From Escherichia coli (lineage in GTDB: Bacteria > Pseudomonadota > Gammaproteobacteria > Enterobacterales > Enterobacteriaceae), in assembly GCF_024298765.1 (NCBI RefSeq), contig NZ_CP101210.1: a DNA stretch of 64,000 bases, one strand, 5' to 3'. A program made the translations under genes and the position numbers. A model generated the notes under the pieces. It saw nothing but the letters and a program-made list of their open reading frames with translations. It had not been told where the DNA came from and made no database searches. Position 1 is the first letter of the stretch. Every line of letters starts with the position of its first letter. Of this stretch, positions 48,283 to 57,359 are shown piece by piece.

Positions 48283-48313
48283 GTTCAGCTAAGGAAGATT
48301 TCAGGTACAAAAA

Positions 48314-48342
48314 AACCGCAATTTGTGAAACACATTGCGGTT
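48314..48342. terminator. Hairpin between convergent dehydrogenase gene and T6SS genes, possibly bidirectional
   Basis: AACCGCAAT-loop-ATTGCGGTT inverted repeat, A-run on the 5' side and short T-run on the 3' side. Confidence 0.5.
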
Positions 48343-48580
48343 TATCAGCATCATAGGTGTTGGTTGCGGGGGCCACAGTCAAGAGGTTAATCCAACCTTT
48401 TGAAACTTAAGACATTCACTGTTCCCGAACCCAAGCTATCTACCGAAATATACACTCATTATCTGATGTGAATCAACGAGTAGATCGAATGGCCTGTTCC
48501 TCTCTTTTTTGTACACAGAGACTCCTTTTAAAAAATGGCAAGGGCACATATCCCTTATTGGTACATAAATCCCCCGATGT

Positions 48581-49957
48581 TTACTGACTTTGTTCCACCT
48601 TCGTATCCAGTAAAATGACATAGCGATTCAACAACTGATTTAACCGGGTATCAATTTGCGTCAACAGCGTTGGCGAAACCTCTCCGGTCTGTTTTTGCTC
48701 TTCCAGTTGCCGAAGCAGTTCTTCCAGCGGCGGCTCCTTTAACGACTGCCGGATGCCGTACACCGCCGTTTTCAGTTCCGAACCGGTCAGATATCTCCCC
48801 TTACGTTCATCCAGTGCATCCAGCTGCGCCGACAGGCGCTGTAGCTGACTCTGCGCCTGAGCATAGCCATTCAGTGCCTCAGCAGACAGGGCGCTCAGCT
48901 CCCGCTGTTTGCGCCACTGCGCGTTCAGCGCCCTGACCTGAGGATTATCCGGCCACAGGGCATCAAGCTGGCGTAGCTGGCGATATCCCTGCTCCAGTGG
49001 CCAGCGGGCAGGCAATTTGTTTAACTGCTCCAGTTGCATCTGACTTGCCGCAATTGTTCTGTCCTGAGCCAGCAGCGCCTTATCCTTTACATCCAGCTTT
49101 GCCAGTTCGCCGCTCTCCAGCGACTGCGGCAACGGCATGACAGACAGTTGTATTCGCTGGATTAGCGCGTCCGGCTGATTAAGCTGCGACCAGCCCCATA
49201 ATCCTGTTCCGCCGAGACCGGCCATCACAACCATTCCGGCCATAAATATCGGCCATGTCCACTGCCGGGAGATTTCAGGGGATGGCACGGGTGGACTGGC
49301 ATCCTTATCGTTTTGCTGAACGGATCTGGTTGCAAAAACCGGCTGTGGACTTTCCTCTGACTTTTTCGGTTGATTCATTTCCCGGCGGGGTAATTCAGGG
49401 GGAGTGATAATGGTTTCCGCTCCCTGAGGCGCCAGCCGTTCCAGACGCAGAGCCGCATTGCGAAACTGCCCGGACAATACGTCCAGCTTCGTCATATGCC
49501 ACAGTTCACACTGTTGCAGCGTGGTTTCGATGGCGGAAAGATGCTGTACACAACGGTAGATCTGCGGCAGATCCTGATACTGAATATCCAGCGTTCTCAG
49601 TGCCTGCTGCATTTTTTCTGTGACCCAGTTGAGCAGTGATATTCTGGAATGTACCTGTACCGGCCAGAAGTCAGCCCAGCGCTGGAGCAGTATATCCAGT
49701 GAACCGAGTCCGTCTGCCATCCCTGCCAGCCCCTGCCGTCTGGTTATCGCCAGTACGTAACAGACCAGCGTCTGTAGTTCCACGCCATTTTGCCGGAACA
49801 GCGCGAGGCTGAGTTTTTCCACCTGACGCCAGTCCACATCCGGTCGGGCCGGGTGAGTCAGTTTACTCATTTCAGCCTGCAGTTCACCGGATTCCTTATA
49901 AGTACAAGGATCGCCGCCCATGACGAACTGGCTGATAAAATTCGCGTTACTTGCCAT
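48581..49957 (-). CDS. T6SS-associated ImpA_N-domain protein with central transmembrane segment (VasL/TagA-like)
   Basis: 458-aa ORF; N-terminal region similar in pattern to the ImpA_N domain of the tssA product; hydrophobic segment (WPIFMAGMVVMAGLGGTGLWGW); last gene of the T6SS block. Confidence 0.55.
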   Translation of the reverse strand: MASNANFISQFVMGGDPCTYKESGELQAEMSKLTHPARPDVDWRQVEKLSLALFRQNGVELQTLVCYVLAITRRQGLAGMADGLGSLDILLQRWADFWPVQVHSRISLLNWVTEKMQQALRTLDIQYQDLPQIYRCVQHLSAIETTLQQCELWHMTKLDVLSGQFRNAALRLERLAPQGAETIITPPELPRREMNQPKKSEESPQPVFATRSVQQNDKDASPPVPSPEISRQWTWPIFMAGMVVMAGLGGTGLWGWSQLNQPDALIQRIQLSVMPLPQSLESGELAKLDVKDKALLAQDRTIAASQMQLEQLNKLPARWPLEQGYRQLRQLDALWPDNPQVRALNAQWRKQRELSALSAEALNGYAQAQSQLQRLSAQLDALDERKGRYLTGSELKTAVYGIRQSLKEPPLEELLRQLEEQKQTGEVSPTLLTQIDTRLNQLLNRYVILLDTKVEQSQ

Positions 49958-50385
49958 CAGTACGCCCGCTCCTGCTGTTTGAGATGACGCAGAACAATTC
50001 GTCCTTCCGGAGAAAATACGCCATCAAAGCGTATCCAGCCGGTATCGGGAAGCTGCGCGTGGATCAGGTAATTAAGATGCCCCGGACGGGGCTGGGGGAG
50101 TAATTCCACCTGTATCTGACTCAGGCGTGGTTCATAACGCAGCAGTGTTTCTTCAATCTGACGCATCAGGCCATGAATACCCGCAGCCATCCCCTGATGG
50201 ATCAGACTGAGATCCGGCAGACCGTAATCCGGCAAATGCGCCAGCGTGCCTGCCCGGCAGTTGATAATGCGTTGCATATTGTCCATCACGGAAAGGATAA
50301 GCTGATCCCGCTCGCTGACCTGTTCCAGCGGTAACTCGCCGCTGAAACTGAACGTCAGCATTTCATATAAGGAAGGTGTCGACAT
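49957..50385 (-). CDS. tssE: T6SS baseplate subunit TssE (gp25-like)
   Basis: 142-aa ORF, size and sequence pattern of gp25/TssE; sits between the tssJ and VasL-like genes. Confidence 0.7.
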   Translation of the reverse strand: MSTPSLYEMLTFSFSGELPLEQVSERDQLILSVMDNMQRIINCRAGTLAHLPDYGLPDLSLIHQGMAAGIHGLMRQIEETLLRYEPRLSQIQVELLPQPRPGHLNYLIHAQLPDTGWIRFDGVFSPEGRIVLRHLKQQERAY

Positions 50386-50388
50386 CGG

Positions 50389-50925
50389 TTATTTATCCTT
50401 GAGAGGCAGCAGTCGCAGGTCGCTTCTCATCAGTTCAATCGAGCGCGGCTTGTCGGCCTCCAGTTCGTCCCTTTTGATCACCAGACGCCAGCTGTCGCTT
50501 TTTTCATCAGGGTGATAAAACTGCCCAATAATGGCGACAAACTGCGTCTCTTTATCCAGCGGCACATTCAGGGATGCCGTGCCTTCCGGTTTTACCCAGA
50601 CGGTGTGTTTTGCCAGTACGTCCTTCTCCAGCGTCTTCTCTTCCTGCATAAACAGGGTGTCGTAATCCGCCTTGTCAAAATCTTCGCGGGTTTTCAGTTG
50701 CCAGACATGCACCATCGTGGAAAGCGGCGTATCTTCCGCATCCGTATTCAGGGCGCTGCGGGAGAAGAAATCGAGATGCAGTATTTTGATTTGTTTGTAG
50801 AAAACGGCTGAGGCCACGCTTTTCGATTCATCCACCACTTTCTGAATCAGCCCGCAGCCACTCAGAACAACCGTCAGCATCGCCATACAGAGCAACGCCG
50901 GACGTTTAAAACGAATAGGAAACAT
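50389..50925 (-). CDS. tssJ: T6SS outer-membrane lipoprotein TssJ
   Basis: 178-aa ORF with signal peptide and lipobox (VVLSGCG); position after tssG. Confidence 0.7.
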   Translation of the reverse strand: MFPIRFKRPALLCMAMLTVVLSGCGLIQKVVDESKSVASAVFYKQIKILHLDFFSRSALNTDAEDTPLSTMVHVWQLKTREDFDKADYDTLFMQEEKTLEKDVLAKHTVWVKPEGTASLNVPLDKETQFVAIIGQFYHPDEKSDSWRLVIKRDELEADKPRSIELMRSDLRLLPLKDK

Positions 50926-51994
50926 GAGTCATACTCTCCCTGTTACGAATGGAAAAAGCGGGTATTAATCCCTGATAACGCCCCAGACTGACCGTCACTG
51001 TTCCGGTCGCGGGCGCGGCAAAGGAGGCGCGAAGGATGCCGGTACGGCTAATCTGTACACGCTGTTTTCCCAGCCGGGCAGCAGGCAACAGGCTGACGGG
51101 CAGCGTCAGTTGCAGACGGGCCTGACAGCGCCAGCCCAGATAAACGCGCAGCAGCACCAGCAAATCGCTGTGCAGTTGCCCGCCGGGCAGCCAGCCACGC
51201 GCTTCTGCGGCATCTTCGGTATACAGTTTCAGCAGCAACTGGCTGTTGACGTCGGTACCGGTACGCCCCAGCAGCGTTCGCGTTTTCAGGCTGATGCGTG
51301 AATTTTTTGACAGACCCGCAGGGGCCGGGAGAATTACAGGCTGCGGATCATGAGGCACCACCGTCGCTTTCGTCAGCGGGGCAAGCAGTCCCACCAGTGC
51401 CGTAACGCCTTCCGCCGTGCGCGTCGGCAGGCGCATCACGCTGAGCAGGGCCAGAAAACGGGATACCGGCGTGGCGATATGGTTCTCGCTGCCGGGAATA
51501 CCCAGCCCGATGAGTCCCAGCAGACAACGGGAAATGTCATCCACGGCACCTGCTTCAAACGACGCCGGGTAGTTATATTTGCGCCAGATGCGGTAATACT
51601 GGGTGATAAAGCGGTGGTTAAAAATATCGAGAAACGCCATCACTGCGTCATGTCCGTCATGACGCTGGGTAATGTAGTCCAGATAGGCGGTTGGCAGCGG
51701 CGAATCCACGCCGTACAGGCCGAGAAAGGTGGTGCGCACCGTGGGCGGCGCGTCGGGATTGCCCACGTCACGTTCAACGTTCTTTAACTCGCTGACCGGA
51801 AAGCCCATTCCGGGATGGGGACGAAAGCGCACCGCATCGGCGGCGGGGCTGTCGGTACTGCCCAGCGGCGCGTTCTGCTGGCTCTGTTCCAGCAACTGGC
51901 AAAAACGGTAAAAATTGATCCGCGCAATATCCGGGGCCAGCCGGTCGGTCAGCCCGGTACGCGCTGGCTGTGATGCTCTGTCCATTGCAGGCAC
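50906..51994 (-). CDS. tssG: T6SS baseplate subunit TssG
   Basis: 362-aa ORF immediately downstream of and overlapping tssF; TssG-like N-terminal region (INFYRFCQLLEQ). Confidence 0.7.
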   Translation of the reverse strand: MPAMDRASQPARTGLTDRLAPDIARINFYRFCQLLEQSQQNAPLGSTDSPAADAVRFRPHPGMGFPVSELKNVERDVGNPDAPPTVRTTFLGLYGVDSPLPTAYLDYITQRHDGHDAVMAFLDIFNHRFITQYYRIWRKYNYPASFEAGAVDDISRCLLGLIGLGIPGSENHIATPVSRFLALLSVMRLPTRTAEGVTALVGLLAPLTKATVVPHDPQPVILPAPAGLSKNSRISLKTRTLLGRTGTDVNSQLLLKLYTEDAAEARGWLPGGQLHSDLLVLLRVYLGWRCQARLQLTLPVSLLPAARLGKQRVQISRTGILRASFAAPATGTVTVSLGRYQGLIPAFSIRNRESMTHVSYSF

Positions 51995-53709
51995 TTTCCT
52001 GTGGGTTGCAGAATTAAGGTCAGTTGAGTGAATAAGTGGATATCGGCATACAGTGCGAAAAAGCGGTGCAGCAGTTCACCAAACAGCGTGATATCACCTT
52101 CTCCGGCAAAGCCGTTACTGTCCAGCGTCACCTGAATATCCACGCCACGCAGCAGAAAGCCTCTTTCAAAACGCTGTATCAGGCTGTGCTGAACGTCGAC
52201 AATCGCCTCCAGACGACGGCGGTTCATCTCACTTTCGGTCCAGTCGTACAGTGCCAGCGTGCCGCGCAGAATTTCGGCGTTATCCATCATCGATAAAAAG
52301 TTAGAACCAAGGTGACTGAGCACCCGCCAGTGGAAGCGGTCACGCGCAGGGGGATAGCAGGGCTGCGTCGGAGCGCACAGGTTGCGCACCCGCAGGACGT
52401 TCTGTGAGGCATGAACTGGCGTATCGAGCAGCGTGCTCTGTAAAGCCTTACGGGGAAGCTGCCCGTTAGTACCGGTCAGGCTTAAAGAGAGCGTTTCATC
52501 CTCCAGCATCCGGTCAGTATCAAACGCATCGCCGCCCAGAATCAGCCAGGTGTCATGCAGGCCGGAAGGGCCGCGCTTTACCCGCGTGTGGTAATAGCGT
52601 TCCGGCGCATCGTGGCGCAGCATCCCGCCCCGGTGACGAAAGCTGGAGAAGGGGACATACGCCTGACTGCCGGTATGGCGCGAAGAAATAATGTTGTCGA
52701 CGGAATAAATCTCGGTATGCCCGTCCTGAATGCGCATCGGGCGCAGCAGAAATTCGTTTTCCAGTGGCGAAAGGTGTAACGGATCGGCTTCGAGCGGGAA
52801 CAGGTTGATGACCGGCACGCAGTGCAGACGGATATTATCGCTGTCAAACGGCAGGTCGTGAGGCCAGTTCTCGTTCAGCACCACGTCAATCTCAAAGCCG
52901 GTTATCCCCTCCGGCCATGCAACCTGCTCCAGCCCGTTCAGCGCCACGAACATAAACTTCTCGCGGAAGGTGAAATACTCCAGCAGCAACTGGTAACCGC
53001 TGAAGGCTGACTCACCTTTTGGCCAGAGCCTGTCATCATCCTCAAAGCCCATCGGGGAAAAGTGTGCGCCAAGCATCCGGCGATCCTGCCCCGGCAGACG
53101 CAGCCAGAACTGCTGCGTGCCAAGCGTTAAAGCCCGGTGCAACGCACAGGCTACCGGGCTGTCGGCATTGAGATAGAGCAGCAGGCGGGATAAATCGATC
53201 TGCGACCAGTCACCAACCAGCGGGCCGCACGCAAAGCGCAGACGGATAACCGAGCGTCCGTCCGGTTCATATTGCAATGACACGTCCGGCAACGCCAGCG
53301 GATGCAGCGTGATATCACGCGTGGCACTGTAGACGCAGCGGGTTCTGCGCTCGCCAACAGGGCGCGACAATACCTGAAAATCGCTCAGCGTTTCGCTCTG
53401 CTTCATCTGCCGGTGATCTGTCGACAGTTCAACCACGGAAAGTGACGGGATGGTTCGCAGGTAGTGGGGCCACAGCAGGCTGACCAGCCCTTCAGTCAGT
53501 TCCGGCAGATCGTCGTCCAGCTTTTCGCGCAGGCGGCCCATTAAAAAAGCGAAGCCTTCGAACAGGCGCTCCACATAGGGATCGCGTGCGCCGGGTTTAT
53601 CAAGATTGAGCATCGCGGCGCGGTCGGGGTAAGCCTGCGCAAATTCTTTCCCCGCTTCACGCAGGTAGCGCATTTCGGCTTCGTAGTAGCGTTGGGTTAG
53701 ATCGTCCAT
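51949..53709 (-). CDS. tssF: T6SS baseplate subunit TssF (start placed at internal MDDLTQ Met; track start is 53748)
   Basis: About 586 aa; N-terminus MDDLTQRYYEAEMRYLREAGKEFAQAYPDRAAML is TssF-like; GGAAG upstream of this ATG. Confidence 0.75.
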   Translation of the reverse strand: MDDLTQRYYEAEMRYLREAGKEFAQAYPDRAAMLNLDKPGARDPYVERLFEGFAFLMGRLREKLDDDLPELTEGLVSLLWPHYLRTIPSLSVVELSTDHRQMKQSETLSDFQVLSRPVGERRTRCVYSATRDITLHPLALPDVSLQYEPDGRSVIRLRFACGPLVGDWSQIDLSRLLLYLNADSPVACALHRALTLGTQQFWLRLPGQDRRMLGAHFSPMGFEDDDRLWPKGESAFSGYQLLLEYFTFREKFMFVALNGLEQVAWPEGITGFEIDVVLNENWPHDLPFDSDNIRLHCVPVINLFPLEADPLHLSPLENEFLLRPMRIQDGHTEIYSVDNIISSRHTGSQAYVPFSSFRHRGGMLRHDAPERYYHTRVKRGPSGLHDTWLILGGDAFDTDRMLEDETLSLSLTGTNGQLPRKALQSTLLDTPVHASQNVLRVRNLCAPTQPCYPPARDRFHWRVLSHLGSNFLSMMDNAEILRGTLALYDWTESEMNRRRLEAIVDVQHSLIQRFERGFLLRGVDIQVTLDSNGFAGEGDITLFGELLHRFFALYADIHLFTQLTLILQPTGKCLQWTEHHSQRVPG

Positions 53710-53918
53710 CGGAGGGATTATCTTCCTTTCATTGAAAGTGAATATCATGCAGGTGTAGAAGTAACATCATAGTTAAATTTATTCTATGTGAATATATTAT
53801 GGATAGTTGCTGACTTATTGATTTTAATAATGATGTATTCTTGTCTTTTCTGAACCAAATTAAATTTACCTTACATAATAGGCAATAATTAATAATTGTG
53901 AACGAATAACTTAAAACA

Positions 53919-54344
53919 TCACGGGCAAATTTCCTGACTGTCGATTATATATCTTATAACTCCGTATTTTCTGTCGTCTTTTGTTGAAATATCTCGTGAT
54001 AATCTAATTAAGTCATTCTTCCCAAATTTTTTTTCGCGCCCTGACAATGAAATGGTGAATGGATAATCCAATTCACCGCGGCTATCTTTATATATCATGA
54101 ATGCCCCCTCATATTTAAAACCATAATCAATATCTGCCGTGGGAAAATATACTAATACATCACTATCACCAACTGGCAAGTGTATATTATGCTGATAAAT
54201 CAGCGTAGAACCGGAAACATATCCCTGAATAAAGACATCGATATCTGAGGAGCATCTATTCTCAATCCTGACTATATTGGAATACTCTTTTTGTGAAGTA
54301 CACCCACTCAAAAAAAACAATAAAAAAACAATTATTCTAATCAT
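53919..54344 (-). CDS. Small lipoprotein, candidate cognate immunity protein for the upstream PAAR toxin
   Basis: 141-aa ORF with lipobox (FFLSGCTS); overlaps the toxin stop by 8 nt; AT-rich. Confidence 0.6.
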   Translation of the reverse strand: MIRIIVFLLFFLSGCTSQKEYSNIVRIENRCSSDIDVFIQGYVSGSTLIYQHNIHLPVGDSDVLVYFPTADIDYGFKYEGAFMIYKDSRGELDYPFTISLSGREKKFGKNDLIRLSRDISTKDDRKYGVIRYIIDSQEICP

Positions 54345-55749
54345 TAAAACTCACCCTGCTCAACCAGATCAATGCCTGAACATCTTCATCTGCCGCGACC
54401 AATCTCTTATATCTATCAGGTGCATAGCTATCTGCATATTTCATTATATCAATCTCTCCTGAAGATGGCATTGGAGTATTAGGGATGGTACTTTGACCCC
54501 GCGTGGATGTCCCCTTATGTGTCCATGATTCAGAACCATATTTATCCATAACTTTATGTCCCATCTCATGAGCACTATCCCATTTATATCTTTCATTACT
54601 ATATAGAAGAGCCTTTATTTCATCCTTGCTGTTATTATAATAGCCACCATAGTTATGGTATATTTTTTCAAACCCCAAAAGACTTACCGACGACTGCATA
54701 TCTGGATCTAACGATGATATCAAATCAAAAGTTCGCATAGATGGAGTAATATTTATCTCAGCCTTTACATTTACTTTAAAAACCCCAATCGCTGTAACGA
54801 TATTACCACCAATTCCCCCGCCGCGACTTCCATTTCGTGACCAGTAAAACTCCACGCCATTTTTAGTAAGACTAACTAAATCGCTATAAGGTATTGGCGA
54901 TAACTCAGGGTTACTGCCTTTTGTACCGCTATCCTTAACAGATAATCTCCATGTTATATCGACCACTTTATTATTTCTGTCAACTTTTACATCAACCCAC
55001 TCTTCTTCTTTCGCAGCATTTTTCAATGGATAATCAACTTTTATCATCATATCACCACATAAAGCAATCAGTCTTACGAGTAGTGATTTGCTTTTTATCT
55101 TAGTTGTATCCAGTATGCCTTGATTACTGTAACCATCCCATTGCCAGGCATGCTCTCCCTTATCACAATATTTACCGGTCTGCCGTTCACTATAAATCAC
55201 TTCATTACCATCAAGCACTTCCAGAGAAAGCGCTTCAGCCTCATCGCCTTTATTTGTGATAGTAAAATCTATTTTTTCTGTATTCTTCGTACTACCACCG
55301 CTTATCATTTCTTTATAATCAGGTATATTCAGTGGCGTCAGTATCTTATTACCTGATAATTTAATTCTGTAATCCAGTTTTACATCATCAGAGGATGAAT
55401 CAGAACCAGAAGTCAGATCCTTTTTCGCCGACTGCGCATGTTGTTCCGCTTCACTTCCCCCGTCATCCACCTCATAGGTATCATCCATCATCGACGCAAT
55501 AAACCGCGCCTTACACGGGCAACTGCTCTGGCTATCCAGCGTCCCCGCCATCAGCCTGCCGTGAATATCTGTTTCAGGAACGCCGCCCACAATAATAAAC
55601 ATTCCCGGATATCTGCCGCAGGTGACCCGGTCCATATCCCGTGCCTGCGGGATACCCATGATCGTATGGTCGTCCGCGCCTTCAATAATTTTGCCGCCGC
55701 AGGTAGTCTTATCGCCCCTGACCAGGAAGTAGCCTGTTCCCATTGCCAT
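54337..55749 (-). CDS. PAAR-like domain T6SS effector with C-terminal HExxH (zincin-type metallopeptidase-like) domain
   Basis: 470-aa ORF; N-terminal PAAR-like region (GTGYFLVRGDKTTCGGKII ... CPCKARFIAS); C-terminal AHEMGHKVMD motif; start ATG overlaps the tssA stop (TGATG). Confidence 0.65.
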   Translation of the reverse strand: MAMGTGYFLVRGDKTTCGGKIIEGADDHTIMGIPQARDMDRVTCGRYPGMFIIVGGVPETDIHGRLMAGTLDSQSSCPCKARFIASMMDDTYEVDDGGSEAEQHAQSAKKDLTSGSDSSSDDVKLDYRIKLSGNKILTPLNIPDYKEMISGGSTKNTEKIDFTITNKGDEAEALSLEVLDGNEVIYSERQTGKYCDKGEHAWQWDGYSNQGILDTTKIKSKSLLVRLIALCGDMMIKVDYPLKNAAKEEEWVDVKVDRNNKVVDITWRLSVKDSGTKGSNPELSPIPYSDLVSLTKNGVEFYWSRNGSRGGGIGGNIVTAIGVFKVNVKAEINITPSMRTFDLISSLDPDMQSSVSLLGFEKIYHNYGGYYNNSKDEIKALLYSNERYKWDSAHEMGHKVMDKYGSESWTHKGTSTRGQSTIPNTPMPSSGEIDIMKYADSYAPDRYKRLVAADEDVQALIWLSRVSFND

Positions 55750-57359
55750 CAGTCCTTATGTTGCGTATCACACAATACCGCTGCCCGCACCGGATTGATT
55801 GCCACCAGTGTACCCAGCAGGGCATCCATTTTTCGGTTCAGCAGGGCTTTATCCGCATAGCGGTGCGCCCGCAGACGCAGCAGTTTCAGCTGTCGGGCTT
55901 TTACTTCAAACAGCAGTTCTGGCTCCCACTGCGTCAGCGTTATTCCCTGTGCGGCTGTATCCAGTTCTTCCAGCAGCAGGAGCGCCATCTCGTTTTTACC
56001 GTACTGTTCCGCCACCCGCGCCATCAGCAGTCGCAATAGCAGGCGCTGTCGTGCCGTGGTGATGCCCGGACGGGTCTGTATCCAGCCCAGCGCCGCTTCC
56101 ACGCCCTGACTGTCTGCTATCTCCAGCGCTTCCGGCTCCAGCGCCAGTACGTCGTTTGTGGCGTCGTCTGTCGGTACAGCGGCTTTCCCCGCAAGCCATG
56201 CGCCGTCTTCCCGCATCATGACCTGCTGCGCTATCCAGTTGCGCGTCACCTCGTCGGCGAACGGCGTGCCGTCGTTCCATGCCAGATTTTCCAGCCCCGG
56301 CAGGCGCTCCAGCAGCAGCGCCAGGTCCTGACGGATAACCGCTGTCCATCTGTCCCACGGTGCGCCCGCCTTGGCCAGCGCCTGATGCAGATACCACTGG
56401 ATATCCAGCCAGAAATGGCTGACGCCGGAGCTGAACATCAGGTCGGCCTGCTCCAGCAGTTCCGTCCAGTTCTGCTGAGCATACAGCCGCTTAAGCTGGT
56501 TGCGTGATTCTGTGCGCGGCGGGGCCAGCCGGGTTTTTCCGTCCACATCCGGCGGCAGTTCATGCACCGTGTCCCAGCGCAGGGTTTTCATCAGCCGGTG
56601 TGCTGAAAGCCAGCCCTGCGGCTGTTCGTTCAGATAACGGGCCAGCACTTTCGCCTGGTCGAGCAGGTCGCGCCCGGAAGTGATGGTCTGTACCTGTGGC
56701 GCATCCACCGGGGAAGACGGTGCCGGAACGCCGCTGCTGTTCTGCGGCACCACCGCGTTCATCCCACCCGACTGCGCCAGACGTGATTCCAGCGCGTTAA
56801 TCAGCGGCATCAGGGAGGGGGAATGCTGGTCTTCGGGCCATGCAGTGAAGGAAACCGTCAGTTGATTAAGAGCGGCAACAATGTTCGCAAAATCCTCTTT
56901 TGCCACTTCCGGGTAGCGGGCAAGGCTGTCGAGCATCTTTTCCCCTGCCAGCCACTCCAGCGCCATTTTTCGGCTTGCCGGGCGCGAGGGCAGCAGTTGC
57001 GCACCGAAGCGTTCCACCAGTCCGGCTAACAGCGCCAGCCCCTCAGCCAGTCCGCGTTCGCCATCGCGGTGCAGTCGCGCCCAGATATAGTAAGTGGCGA
57101 TGCGCACGTCTTTTGCCTGCGTCAGCAGCAGGGATTCGGCAAGCTGGCAGATAAGGTCCGTATCCGCGCCGGAAAGTTTGTTCATCTCGTCGCGGATACG
57201 CAGGAAATCGTCGTGGTAGCCGGGGTCTTCCCCGACCGGCGTATCTGCCGTCACCGGCAGCAGCCATGTCTGCCACAGCGCCGCCTGTGTTCGCGCCGAG
57301 TCCAGTGCGTCCCGGTCGGCAAAACAGCTACGGGTCAGCTTTTGCAACAGTTCACTCAT
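55749..57359 (-). CDS. tssA: T6SS protein TssA (ImpA family); start placed at MSELLQKL just after the tssM stop
   Basis: About 536-aa ORF with ImpA_N-type N-terminal region (PVGEDPGYHDDFLRIRDEMNKL); follows tssM. Confidence 0.7.
   Translation of the reverse strand: MSELLQKLTRSCFADRDALDSARTQAALWQTWLLPVTADTPVGEDPGYHDDFLRIRDEMNKLSGADTDLICQLAESLLLTQAKDVRIATYYIWARLHRDGERGLAEGLALLAGLVERFGAQLLPSRPASRKMALEWLAGEKMLDSLARYPEVAKEDFANIVAALNQLTVSFTAWPEDQHSPSLMPLINALESRLAQSGGMNAVVPQNSSGVPAPSSPVDAPQVQTITSGRDLLDQAKVLARYLNEQPQGWLSAHRLMKTLRWDTVHELPPDVDGKTRLAPPRTESRNQLKRLYAQQNWTELLEQADLMFSSGVSHFWLDIQWYLHQALAKAGAPWDRWTAVIRQDLALLLERLPGLENLAWNDGTPFADEVTRNWIAQQVMMREDGAWLAGKAAVPTDDATNDVLALEPEALEIADSQGVEAALGWIQTRPGITTARQRLLLRLLMARVAEQYGKNEMALLLLEELDTAAQGITLTQWEPELLFEVKARQLKLLRLRAHRYADKALLNRKMDALLGTLVAINPVRAAVLCDTQHKD

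Follow-up and report, generated by a model that had tools for sequence, protein, structure and literature searches.

The region between positions 48581 and 57359 of the E. coli DNA analysed here (64,000 nucleotides, called the window below) very probably forms the distal half of a cluster of the E. coli T6SS-1 type, and encodes two anciently duplicated ImpA_N proteins with different jobs, a TssA that would cap the sheath and a TagA that would stop and hold it. Both ORFs lie where they had been placed: the terminal ORF of the block has its stop at 48581, and RefSeq starts tssA at 57359. The two genes lie on one strand of one cluster with 5.8 kb between them. The preliminary description had proposed that both of their products carry ImpA_N-like N-termini, and that a canonical TssA is accompanied by a TagA/VasL-type paralogue; our analysis bears out both proposals, as detailed below.

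All of the genes considered here are on the minus strand. The start of tssA (55749..57359; 536 aa from the RefSeq start) overlaps the stop of tssM (inner-membrane complex, 57352..60678) by 8 nt, and a low-GC cargo slot (53919..55743), which is outside the TssA/TagA pair although it is situated between the two genes, contains a PAAR protein gene (54337-55743, with a ~370-aa C-terminal extension bearing an HExxH motif) and a 141-aa lipoprotein-like ORF (53919-54344). Beyond it are the baseplate genes tssF (51949..53709) and tssG (50906..51985), the outer-membrane lipoprotein gene tssJ (50389..50925), the gp25-like baseplate gene tssE (49957..50385) and, as the terminal gene of the block, the tagA-type gene (48581..49957), whose 458-aa product is RefSeq WP_000157821.1, "VasL domain-containing protein". 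The ATG of the tagA-type gene and the stop codon of tssE have one base in common (TGATG). A weak hairpin and T-run are found 24 nt downstream of the tagA-type gene (48557-48539), and terminator-like sites are not enriched there (3, versus 2.0 +/- 1.5 expected in shuffles); the hairpin was given no weight here.

The tssA product is, judged from its domains and closest relatives, a canonical long, class A TssA (TsaC). Pfam finds ImpA_N (PF06812) at aa 43-147 of the 545-aa ORF (window 56946-57260) with 69.0 bits (E 4.9e-19), above the curated cut-off of 26.9 bits for this family, and a VasJ C-terminal region (PF16989, window 55896-56681) with 262 bits. The protein scores 472 bits against the TIGR03362 equivalog, for which the cut-off is 230, and it matches the PDB entries 6RJU (E 8e-175), 4YO3 and 4YO5. 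These three structures are of the EAEC 042 TssA (EC042_4540), which has the same ImpA_N plus VasJ content, also passes TIGR03362, and is 55% identical to our protein in a full-length alignment of 522 aa. The tssA/tssM overlap is present here as in sci-1 (PMC6450956). The two TssAs differ in being allelic variants at different chromosomal loci (the argA/amiC...tRNA-Met/mltA region here, and the sci-1-bearing island in 042), and the cargo genes next to them are not the same.

The terminal ORF has the predicted architecture of TagA/VasL (class B, TsmA) proteins, namely ImpA_N, a hydrophobic segment and a VasL domain. Its ImpA_N match (aa 24-112, 49622..49888) scores 42.1 bits (E 1.1e-10) in Pfam, and a profile search that found no such domain would have spoken against the original proposal; instead, Pfam, direct alignment, a family profile and the fold of the AF2 model all find it. 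The N-termini of TssA and the TagA-type protein align directly (26.5% identity over 132 aa, E 9e-9), and a profile built from 34 TagA-type homologues matches the ImpA_N regions of EAEC TssA 6RJU (E 5e-8) and B. cenocepacia TssA 6HS5 (E 8e-6). The entire N-terminal helical domain spans aa ~11-175 (window 49433-49927; pLDDT mostly 82-93 for aa 11-170), and in Foldseek the best PDB match to this part of the AF2 model is again 6HS5 (probability 1.00, E 4e-3); the other PDB matches, all with E>0.1, were to helical repeats of a generic TPR-like kind and were set aside. A PDB search with the single TagA-type sequence gave only a chance-level match (E 0.5). ImpA_N domains cluster by class and not by genome, with 39% identity (116 bits) between the TagAs, 55% (179 bits) between the TssAs, and 26-32% (33-44 bits) across the two classes.

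A disordered Pro/Ser/Glu-rich linker (aa 176-232, 49262..49432; 20% Pro) follows, which is poorly conserved (variable, gapped alignment columns) and has pLDDT <50. Next is the hydrophobic segment (aa ~233-257, 49187..49261; WTWPIFMAGMVVMAGLGGTGLWGWS), which is Gly-rich, bracketed by Trp residues and devoid of charged residues over an uncharged stretch of ~21-25 residues. Its Kyte-Doolittle 19-residue maximum is merely 1.51 because the segment is so Gly-rich, just under the usual threshold of 1.6, and the soluble TssA reaches 1.46 at its C-terminus; hydropathy alone is thus uninformative as a transmembrane test for this allele, and we therefore relied on positional conservation across the 34 homologues. 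The segment is the hydrophobicity maximum in 30 of them and reaches at least 1.6 in 25, so that the central hydrophobic segment noted in the preliminary description is real, if marginal in hydropathy, and is probably a membrane-association or transmembrane helix. One natural allele has a Lys in mid-segment.

The VasL domain (PF12486; aa 306-448, 48614..49042) is matched with 134 bits (E 5e-39) over 144 of the 147 profile positions and is all-helical. There is no solved structure for this domain, since the family profile matches the PDB in ImpA_N regions only. The C-terminus had been described as rich in coiled coil, which holds only in part: the last 160 aa are indeed all-helical and L/Q/E-rich, but the AF2 model has eight helices of 13-29 residues here (pLDDT block means 71-89 over aa 301-450), the region is a VasL domain, and a crude heptad score from a non-validated scan peaks only at aa ~350-385. 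The protein has no VasJ C-terminal domain and falls below both TssA equivalog cut-offs (TIGR03362 and TIGR03363).

The closest characterized relative that we considered, the EAEC 042 TagA (EC042_4550, 455 aa), aligns end to end with the 458-aa protein (33% identity over 443 aa, E 3e-66). It has the same order of ImpA_N, linker, hydrophobic segment (aa ~235-255) and VasL domain, and its gene, too, occupies the tssE-distal end of a cluster of the sci-1 type that also encodes a long TssA. Identity is 39% in the N-terminal domain and 33% in the C-terminal region, and none is detectable in the linker and hydrophobic segment; nevertheless the segments occupy nearly the same place (aa 237-255 here and 235-253 in EAEC TagA), the one described here being Gly-rich and less hydrophobic (1.51 versus 1.99). 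The tagA-type gene adjoins tssE here, whereas in 042 four unrelated genes separate tssE and tagA. The V. cholerae system also has, in one cluster, a class A TssA (VCA0119) and a class B, membrane-localised ImpA_N protein, VasL/TagA (VCA0121) (PMC6745524, PMC7545191), and it is the source of the Pfam name VasL. By published figures the V. cholerae TagA is much more distant from our protein than is the EAEC TagA: TagA_VC and TagA_EC are 19.3% identical (PMC6745524), and Bernal et al. give "TagAV" a C-terminal type of its own (PMC7896307). Short TssAs (class C, for example P. aeruginosa TssA1, with TagB/TagJ partners) share the N-terminal ImpA_N, but neither window protein reaches the cut-off of 160.85 for their equivalog TIGR03363 (51.8 and 25.2 bits). 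In short-TssA systems (groups 3-5) the sheath is stabilised from the baseplate, without TagA (PMC7896307).

A long TssA together with TagA typifies T6SS groups 1 and 2, which are "slow" and anchored at the distal end, and because published work ties the pair to these groups it helps to classify the system, as had been suggested. The pairing is not an infallible marker, since in P. aeruginosa the H2-T6SS has a long TssA but no TagA (PMC7896307). Gene order here is that of EAEC sci-1 (tssB-C-K-L, an OmpA-family TagL-like gene, hcp, clpV, vgrG ... tssM-A ... tssF-G-J-E, then tagA), and the components shared with sci-1 are 44-67% identical except TagA, which is the most diverged (33%). Assignment of the cluster to a sci-1-like E. 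coli T6SS-1 of phylogenetic group 2 is supported by its synteny with sci-1 and its resemblance to it, sci-1 itself being an E. coli T6SS-1 that the literature puts in group 2/C (PMC7896307, PMC6730261). This reading of the TssA/TagA pair is well supported, and such a pair is already known and ordinary.

Searches with the TagA-type protein gave 640 homologues at E<=1e-5. PF12486 and PF06812 occur together in nearly all of the 120 homologues listed, including every near-full-length one, and the hosts among the matches listed include Escherichia, Salmonella, Photorhabdus, Yersinia, Citrobacter, Cronobacter, Serratia and others; the alignment of 34 sequences has 41 invariant columns. Of 5426 complete E. 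coli genomes, 1142 have 80% or more of the entire 9.2-kb block, and many E. coli chromosomes match the block with 100% identity. Within the tagA-type gene dN/dS is 0.3-0.6 in the linker and 0.02-0.16 in the VasL domain (0.02-0.04 against the three most divergent alleles).

By analogy with its homologues, the cytosolic ImpA_N domain of this TagA would be tethered through the flexible Pro-rich linker to the hydrophobic helix, which would keep the protein at the inner membrane, with the helical VasL domain next; as the membrane-associated partner of the TssA cap, TagA would stop and hold the extended sheath, and the outcome would be a "slow" T6SS of long residence. Binding of TagA to TssA, association with the inner membrane and the stop-and-hold of the sheath are known for the EAEC and V. 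cholerae TagAs only (PMC6745524, PMC6450956, PMC7545191); the mechanistic accounts (PMC6745524, PMC6450956, PMC7545191, PMC7896307, PMC10433429) all cite Santin et al. 2018. At the sheath's distal end TssM is another known membrane partner of TssA (PMC6450956, PMC7545191). Counterpoints to this reading are that the EAEC homologue is only 33% identical, that the hydropathy of the segment is marginal here and one natural allele has a Lys in it, and that EAEC keeps some, though reduced, T6SS activity when tagA is deleted, the effect of the deletion on killing by V. cholerae being negligible (PMC6730261, PMC6745524).

Other readings of the terminal ORF differ greatly in plausibility. It is highly improbable that it has no specific role here, whether as a TssA paralogue that is redundant or in decay, or as a further cap protein for another T6SS. 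TagA is admittedly accessory and not core, and RefSeq splits the EAEC 042 tagA into three pseudogene fragments, but the 042 ORF is actually intact (455 aa), and so is the ORF in the window and in the four divergent E. coli alleles for which translations were made. At least 1316 of the 5426 complete genomes (about a quarter) have 80% or more of the gene, its overall dN/dS of 0.09-0.25 indicates purifying selection, its overlap with tssE is of the translational-coupling type, and its architecture is conserved across Enterobacterales. Lack of VasJ and failure at both TssA equivalog cut-offs argue against this reading too. In view of the intact ORFs and the low dN/dS, we rejected a pseudogene-like remnant of the kind that RefSeq makes of the 042 copy. 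It is possible, though we would not expect it, that the main function of TagA is negative regulation or termination: it would compete with TssA for the sheath end and restrict how long and how numerous sheaths become, instead of clamping the sheath. TagA and TssA have the sheath/baseplate-binding ImpA_N domain in common, and overproduction of the V. cholerae TagA blocks sheath assembly, for which the authors propose competition with TssA (PMC6745524). In EAEC, the closer relative, sheaths without TagA slide, become over-long and contract prematurely, and TagA recruits TssA to the envelope (PMC6450956, PMC7896307), which points to a holding role too; the two roles are compatible with each other, and sequence does not discriminate between them.

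A further alternative concerns topology: that this TagA is a bitopic inner-membrane protein, N-in/C-out, which would make it a distal anchor that crosses the membrane and not a clamp bound peripherally on the cytosolic side. ImpA_N would then be cytosolic and VasL periplasmic. The ~21 uncharged residues with Trp at both ends speak for such an arrangement, as does the AF2 model, in which aa 236-259 form a single unbroken helix. In addition, the flanks of the segment resemble those of a transmembrane helix oriented N-in/C-out: 15-residue flanks average 2.6 K/R on the N-side against 1.2 on the C-side (N-side richer in 26 of the 34 homologues), the positive-inside pattern that is classical for single-pass helices. 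Some papers do speak of a "transmembrane region/domain" (PMC6745524, PMC8508121), but elsewhere TagA is called "membrane-associated", "peripherally associated" or "tightly associated", and not a proven bitopic anchor (PMC7545191, PMC6450956, PMC8508121). The hydropathy of this allele is, moreover, marginal. The abstract of Santin et al. 2018 is said to describe the EAEC TagA as a cytosolic protein that is tightly membrane-associated, which also tells against a bitopic anchor. We consider a bitopic TagA unlikely here, and it is distinctly unlikely that the uncharged span, Trp ends and K/R excess mark TagA-family proteins in general as true N-in/C-out single-pass membrane proteins.

The significance of these findings is slight beyond annotation, although they do touch upon TagA's topology in the membrane and upon where its VasL domain lies and what it does. 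TagA can serve as the name for RefSeq's "VasL domain-containing protein" in this E. coli T6SS-1 variant, which is very common, and placement of the system among the long-TssA/TagA "slow-firing" T6SSs (groups 1-2) predicts that it would have long sheath residence, with several assembled sheaths per cell.

The window DNA is E. coli chromosome, and positions 48300-57500 (9.2 kb) are found at 100% identity in many complete genomes, whose isolates are of avian, porcine, human and environmental origin; of 5426 complete E. coli genomes, 1142 carry at least 80% of this region. NZ_CP019273 is an annotated identical copy, and there the block makes up the distal half of a type VI secretion (T6SS) cluster that is inserted between argA/amiC/sugar-utilisation genes on one side and three tRNA-Met genes, then mltA, on the other. 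Its genes (all on the minus strand) run tssB, tssC, tssK, tssL, an OmpA-family gene, hcp, tssH, vgrG, amidase, small ORFs, a 404-aa hypothetical, tssM, tssA, PAAR protein, small lipoprotein, tssF, tssG, tssJ, tssE and "VasL domain-containing protein". The span for which a TssA and a TagA/VasL-type paralogue, both with ImpA_N domains, had been described has as its exact limits the stop of this last gene (48581) and the tssA start given by RefSeq (57359). Clusters otherwise identical to the window's are inactivated in some strains: tssG is disrupted by ISEc12 (IS21 family) in APEC E12049 (locus L003, 3107-6772), and tssH is frameshifted in strain 13P477T (locus L001, 37393-40018). APEC E956 and strain 64.1 may be affected as well, since they too match in two pieces and have an IS21-family istA.

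Both proteins carry ImpA_N (Pfam PF06812, curated cut-off 26.9): TssA (55749-57359, minus strand) scores 69.0 bits (E 4.9e-19) and the last ORF (48581-49957, minus strand, 458 aa) scores 42.1 bits (E 1.1e-10). Their N-termini align directly at 26.5% over 132 residues (E 9e-9), a family profile of 34 last-ORF homologues matches the ImpA_N regions of the solved EAEC TssA (6RJU, E 5e-8) and B. cenocepacia TssA (6HS5, E 8e-6), and the last ORF's AlphaFold2 (AF2) model has a single meaningful fold match in the PDB, again 6HS5 (probability 1.00). The preliminary description had staked its claim on a profile search of the second protein; that search detects the domain, therefore the observation is real, with scores far above chance level. 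Counted from its RefSeq start, TssA has 536 aa; its C-terminal region is VasJ (262 bits), and it passes the NCBIfam TssA equivalog TIGR03362 (472 bits vs 230) but fails the short-TssA model TIGR03363 (52 bits vs 161), so by its domain content it belongs to the long, class A TssA proteins, whereas the last ORF is below both cut-offs. The tssM and tssA genes overlap in the window, likewise in sci-1, the T6SS-1 cluster of EAEC 042.

The last ORF has a helical N-terminal domain (aa ~11-175; confidently modelled, pLDDT mostly 82-93 across aa 11-170), a poorly conserved Pro-rich linker that is disordered in the AF2 model (aa 176-232), a Gly-rich segment free of charged residues that has Trp at each end and is modelled as one helix (aa 233-257, WTWPIFMAGMVVMAGLGGTGLWGWS; 49187-49261, minus strand), and an all-helical C-terminal region (aa 306-448; Pfam VasL, 134 bits). 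The central hydrophobic segment described earlier thus holds up: hydrophobicity peaks at this segment in 30 of 34 aligned homologues, and 25 of the 34 exceed 1.6, with this allele marginal (Kyte-Doolittle 19-residue maximum 1.51). The "coiled-coil-rich" C-terminus is only loosely borne out; the AF2 model has eight helices there of 13-29 residues each, and the heptad score (a crude scan) peaks near aa 350-385 only; we would call this region a helical VasL domain. Trp233 is Arg in the other four alleles examined, and strain UTAK-2 (locus L004) has a Lys in mid-segment (MVVKACLGG).

The hydrophobic region of TagA has been termed "transmembrane" (PMC6745524 introduction, PMC8508121), and the protein has been described as "peripherally" or "tightly" membrane-associated (PMC7545191, PMC6450956). 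In the 34 homologues the segment comprises ~21 uncharged residues with Trp at each end, and the 15 flanking residues contain on average 2.6 K/R on the N-side vs 1.2 on the C-side (N-side excess in 26 of 34 sequences). An uncharged segment with a K/R-richer N-side flank is what classically marks a single-pass helix of N-in/C-out orientation, and the VasL domain would then lie in the periplasm; we consider this topology improbable for TagA because Santin et al. in 2018 reportedly described EAEC TagA as cytosolic. An altogether different reading, that the last ORF is a relic or pseudogene, is very unlikely given its conservation, low dN/dS and overlap with tssE. A database search returned 640 homologues (E<=1e-5), and among the 120 matches listed nearly all, including every near-full-length one, have PF12486+PF06812, the exceptions being short fragments and chimeric predictions; the family, with listed members in Escherichia, Salmonella, Photorhabdus, Yersinia, Citrobacter, Cronobacter, Serratia, Pectobacterium and others, is large and uniform. 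There are 41 invariant columns in the 34-sequence alignment, and 1316 of 5426 complete E. coli genomes (AIEC LF82 among them) have at least 80% of the ORF. In comparisons with four divergent alleles from E. coli, the overall dN/dS is 0.09-0.25; by region it is 0.05-0.21 in the N-terminal domain, 0.3-0.6 in the linker and 0.02-0.16 in the VasL part (0.02-0.04 vs the three most divergent). The start codon overlaps the tssE stop codon by one base, a sign that the two genes may be translationally coupled.

The window cluster has the same gene order as EAEC 042 sci-1, and their core proteins are 44-67% identical. The TssA proteins are 55% identical over their full length; residues 14-449 of the last ORF align with the characterised EAEC TagA (EC042_4550) at 33% identity (E 3e-66) with the hydrophobic segment in the same position, and TagA is the fastest-diverging component common to the two clusters. 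EC042_4550 is an intact 455-aa ORF, and therefore the three pseudogene fragments (ImpA_N / "POTRA" / VasL) into which RefSeq splits it (locus L002, 44071-45438, NC_017626) are an annotation artefact. In pairwise comparison of the window and EAEC 042, the ImpA_N domains cluster by class rather than by genome (TagA-TagA 39%, 116 bits; TssA-TssA 55%, 179 bits; cross-class 26-32%, 33-44 bits), and so the TssA/TagA duplication is, judging from these domains, older than the split of the two T6SS-1 variants.

Positions 53919-55749 (minus strand) form a 42% GC patch among core-gene windows of mostly 54-62% GC, and encode a PAAR protein of 470 aa, followed by a 141-aa lipoprotein-like ORF. The PAAR protein's C-terminal extension (~370 aa) has an HExxH motif (SAHEMGHKV) and zero matches in Pfam, NCBIfam and PDB; the pair is probably a PAAR-fused metallopeptidase-like effector and its immunity protein. 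In EAEC 042 this slot is occupied by an unrelated 230-aa hypothetical. The stretch 62001-64000 (minus strand, GC 38%) probably encodes a VgrG-associated peptidoglycan amidase effector and immunity gene: the VgrG C-terminal part (DUF2345, 166 bits) is followed by an Amidase_2 protein (62515-63168, minus strand; 217 aa, 37 bits) and a 94-aa ORF (62055-62339, minus strand). Directly upstream of tssM is the 404-aa ORF (60735-61949, minus strand), which has hydrophobic N-terminal stretches and for which no family match was found; EAEC 042 has a 382-aa hypothetical there, with no BLAST similarity between the two at E 1e-3, so it looks as if the slot is conserved and its occupants are non-homologous or extremely diverged. 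TssM (57352-60873, minus strand) is under the TIGR03348 cut-off (259 bits vs 388), and consequently RefSeq names it merely "ImcF-related family protein"; the match is limited to model positions 433-1167, so its N-terminal ~400 residues (membrane and cytoplasmic part) are divergent.

By analogy with its homologues, TagA would be membrane-associated and bind TssA, would halt polymerisation once the sheath meets the opposite membrane, and would then keep the sheath extended. Without TagA, sheaths go on growing, slide, bend, detach or break, and killing falls (PMC6745524, PMC6450956, PMC7545191, PMC6730261); at the distal end TssA has a second membrane partner, TssM (PMC6450956). Bernal et al. showed that phylogenetic groups 1 and 2 are dominated by long TssA with TagA whereas groups 3-5 have short TssA with TagB or TagJ, a division that correlates with slow vs fast firing (PMC7896307; summary PMC10433429), and E. 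coli T6SS-1 is assigned to group 2/C (PMC7896307, PMC6730261). The proposal that such a pair typifies particular T6SS subtypes and helps to classify the system is thus correct and established knowledge; the TssA and TagA pair is confirmed here, its interpretation is supported, and it is already known and widely distributed.
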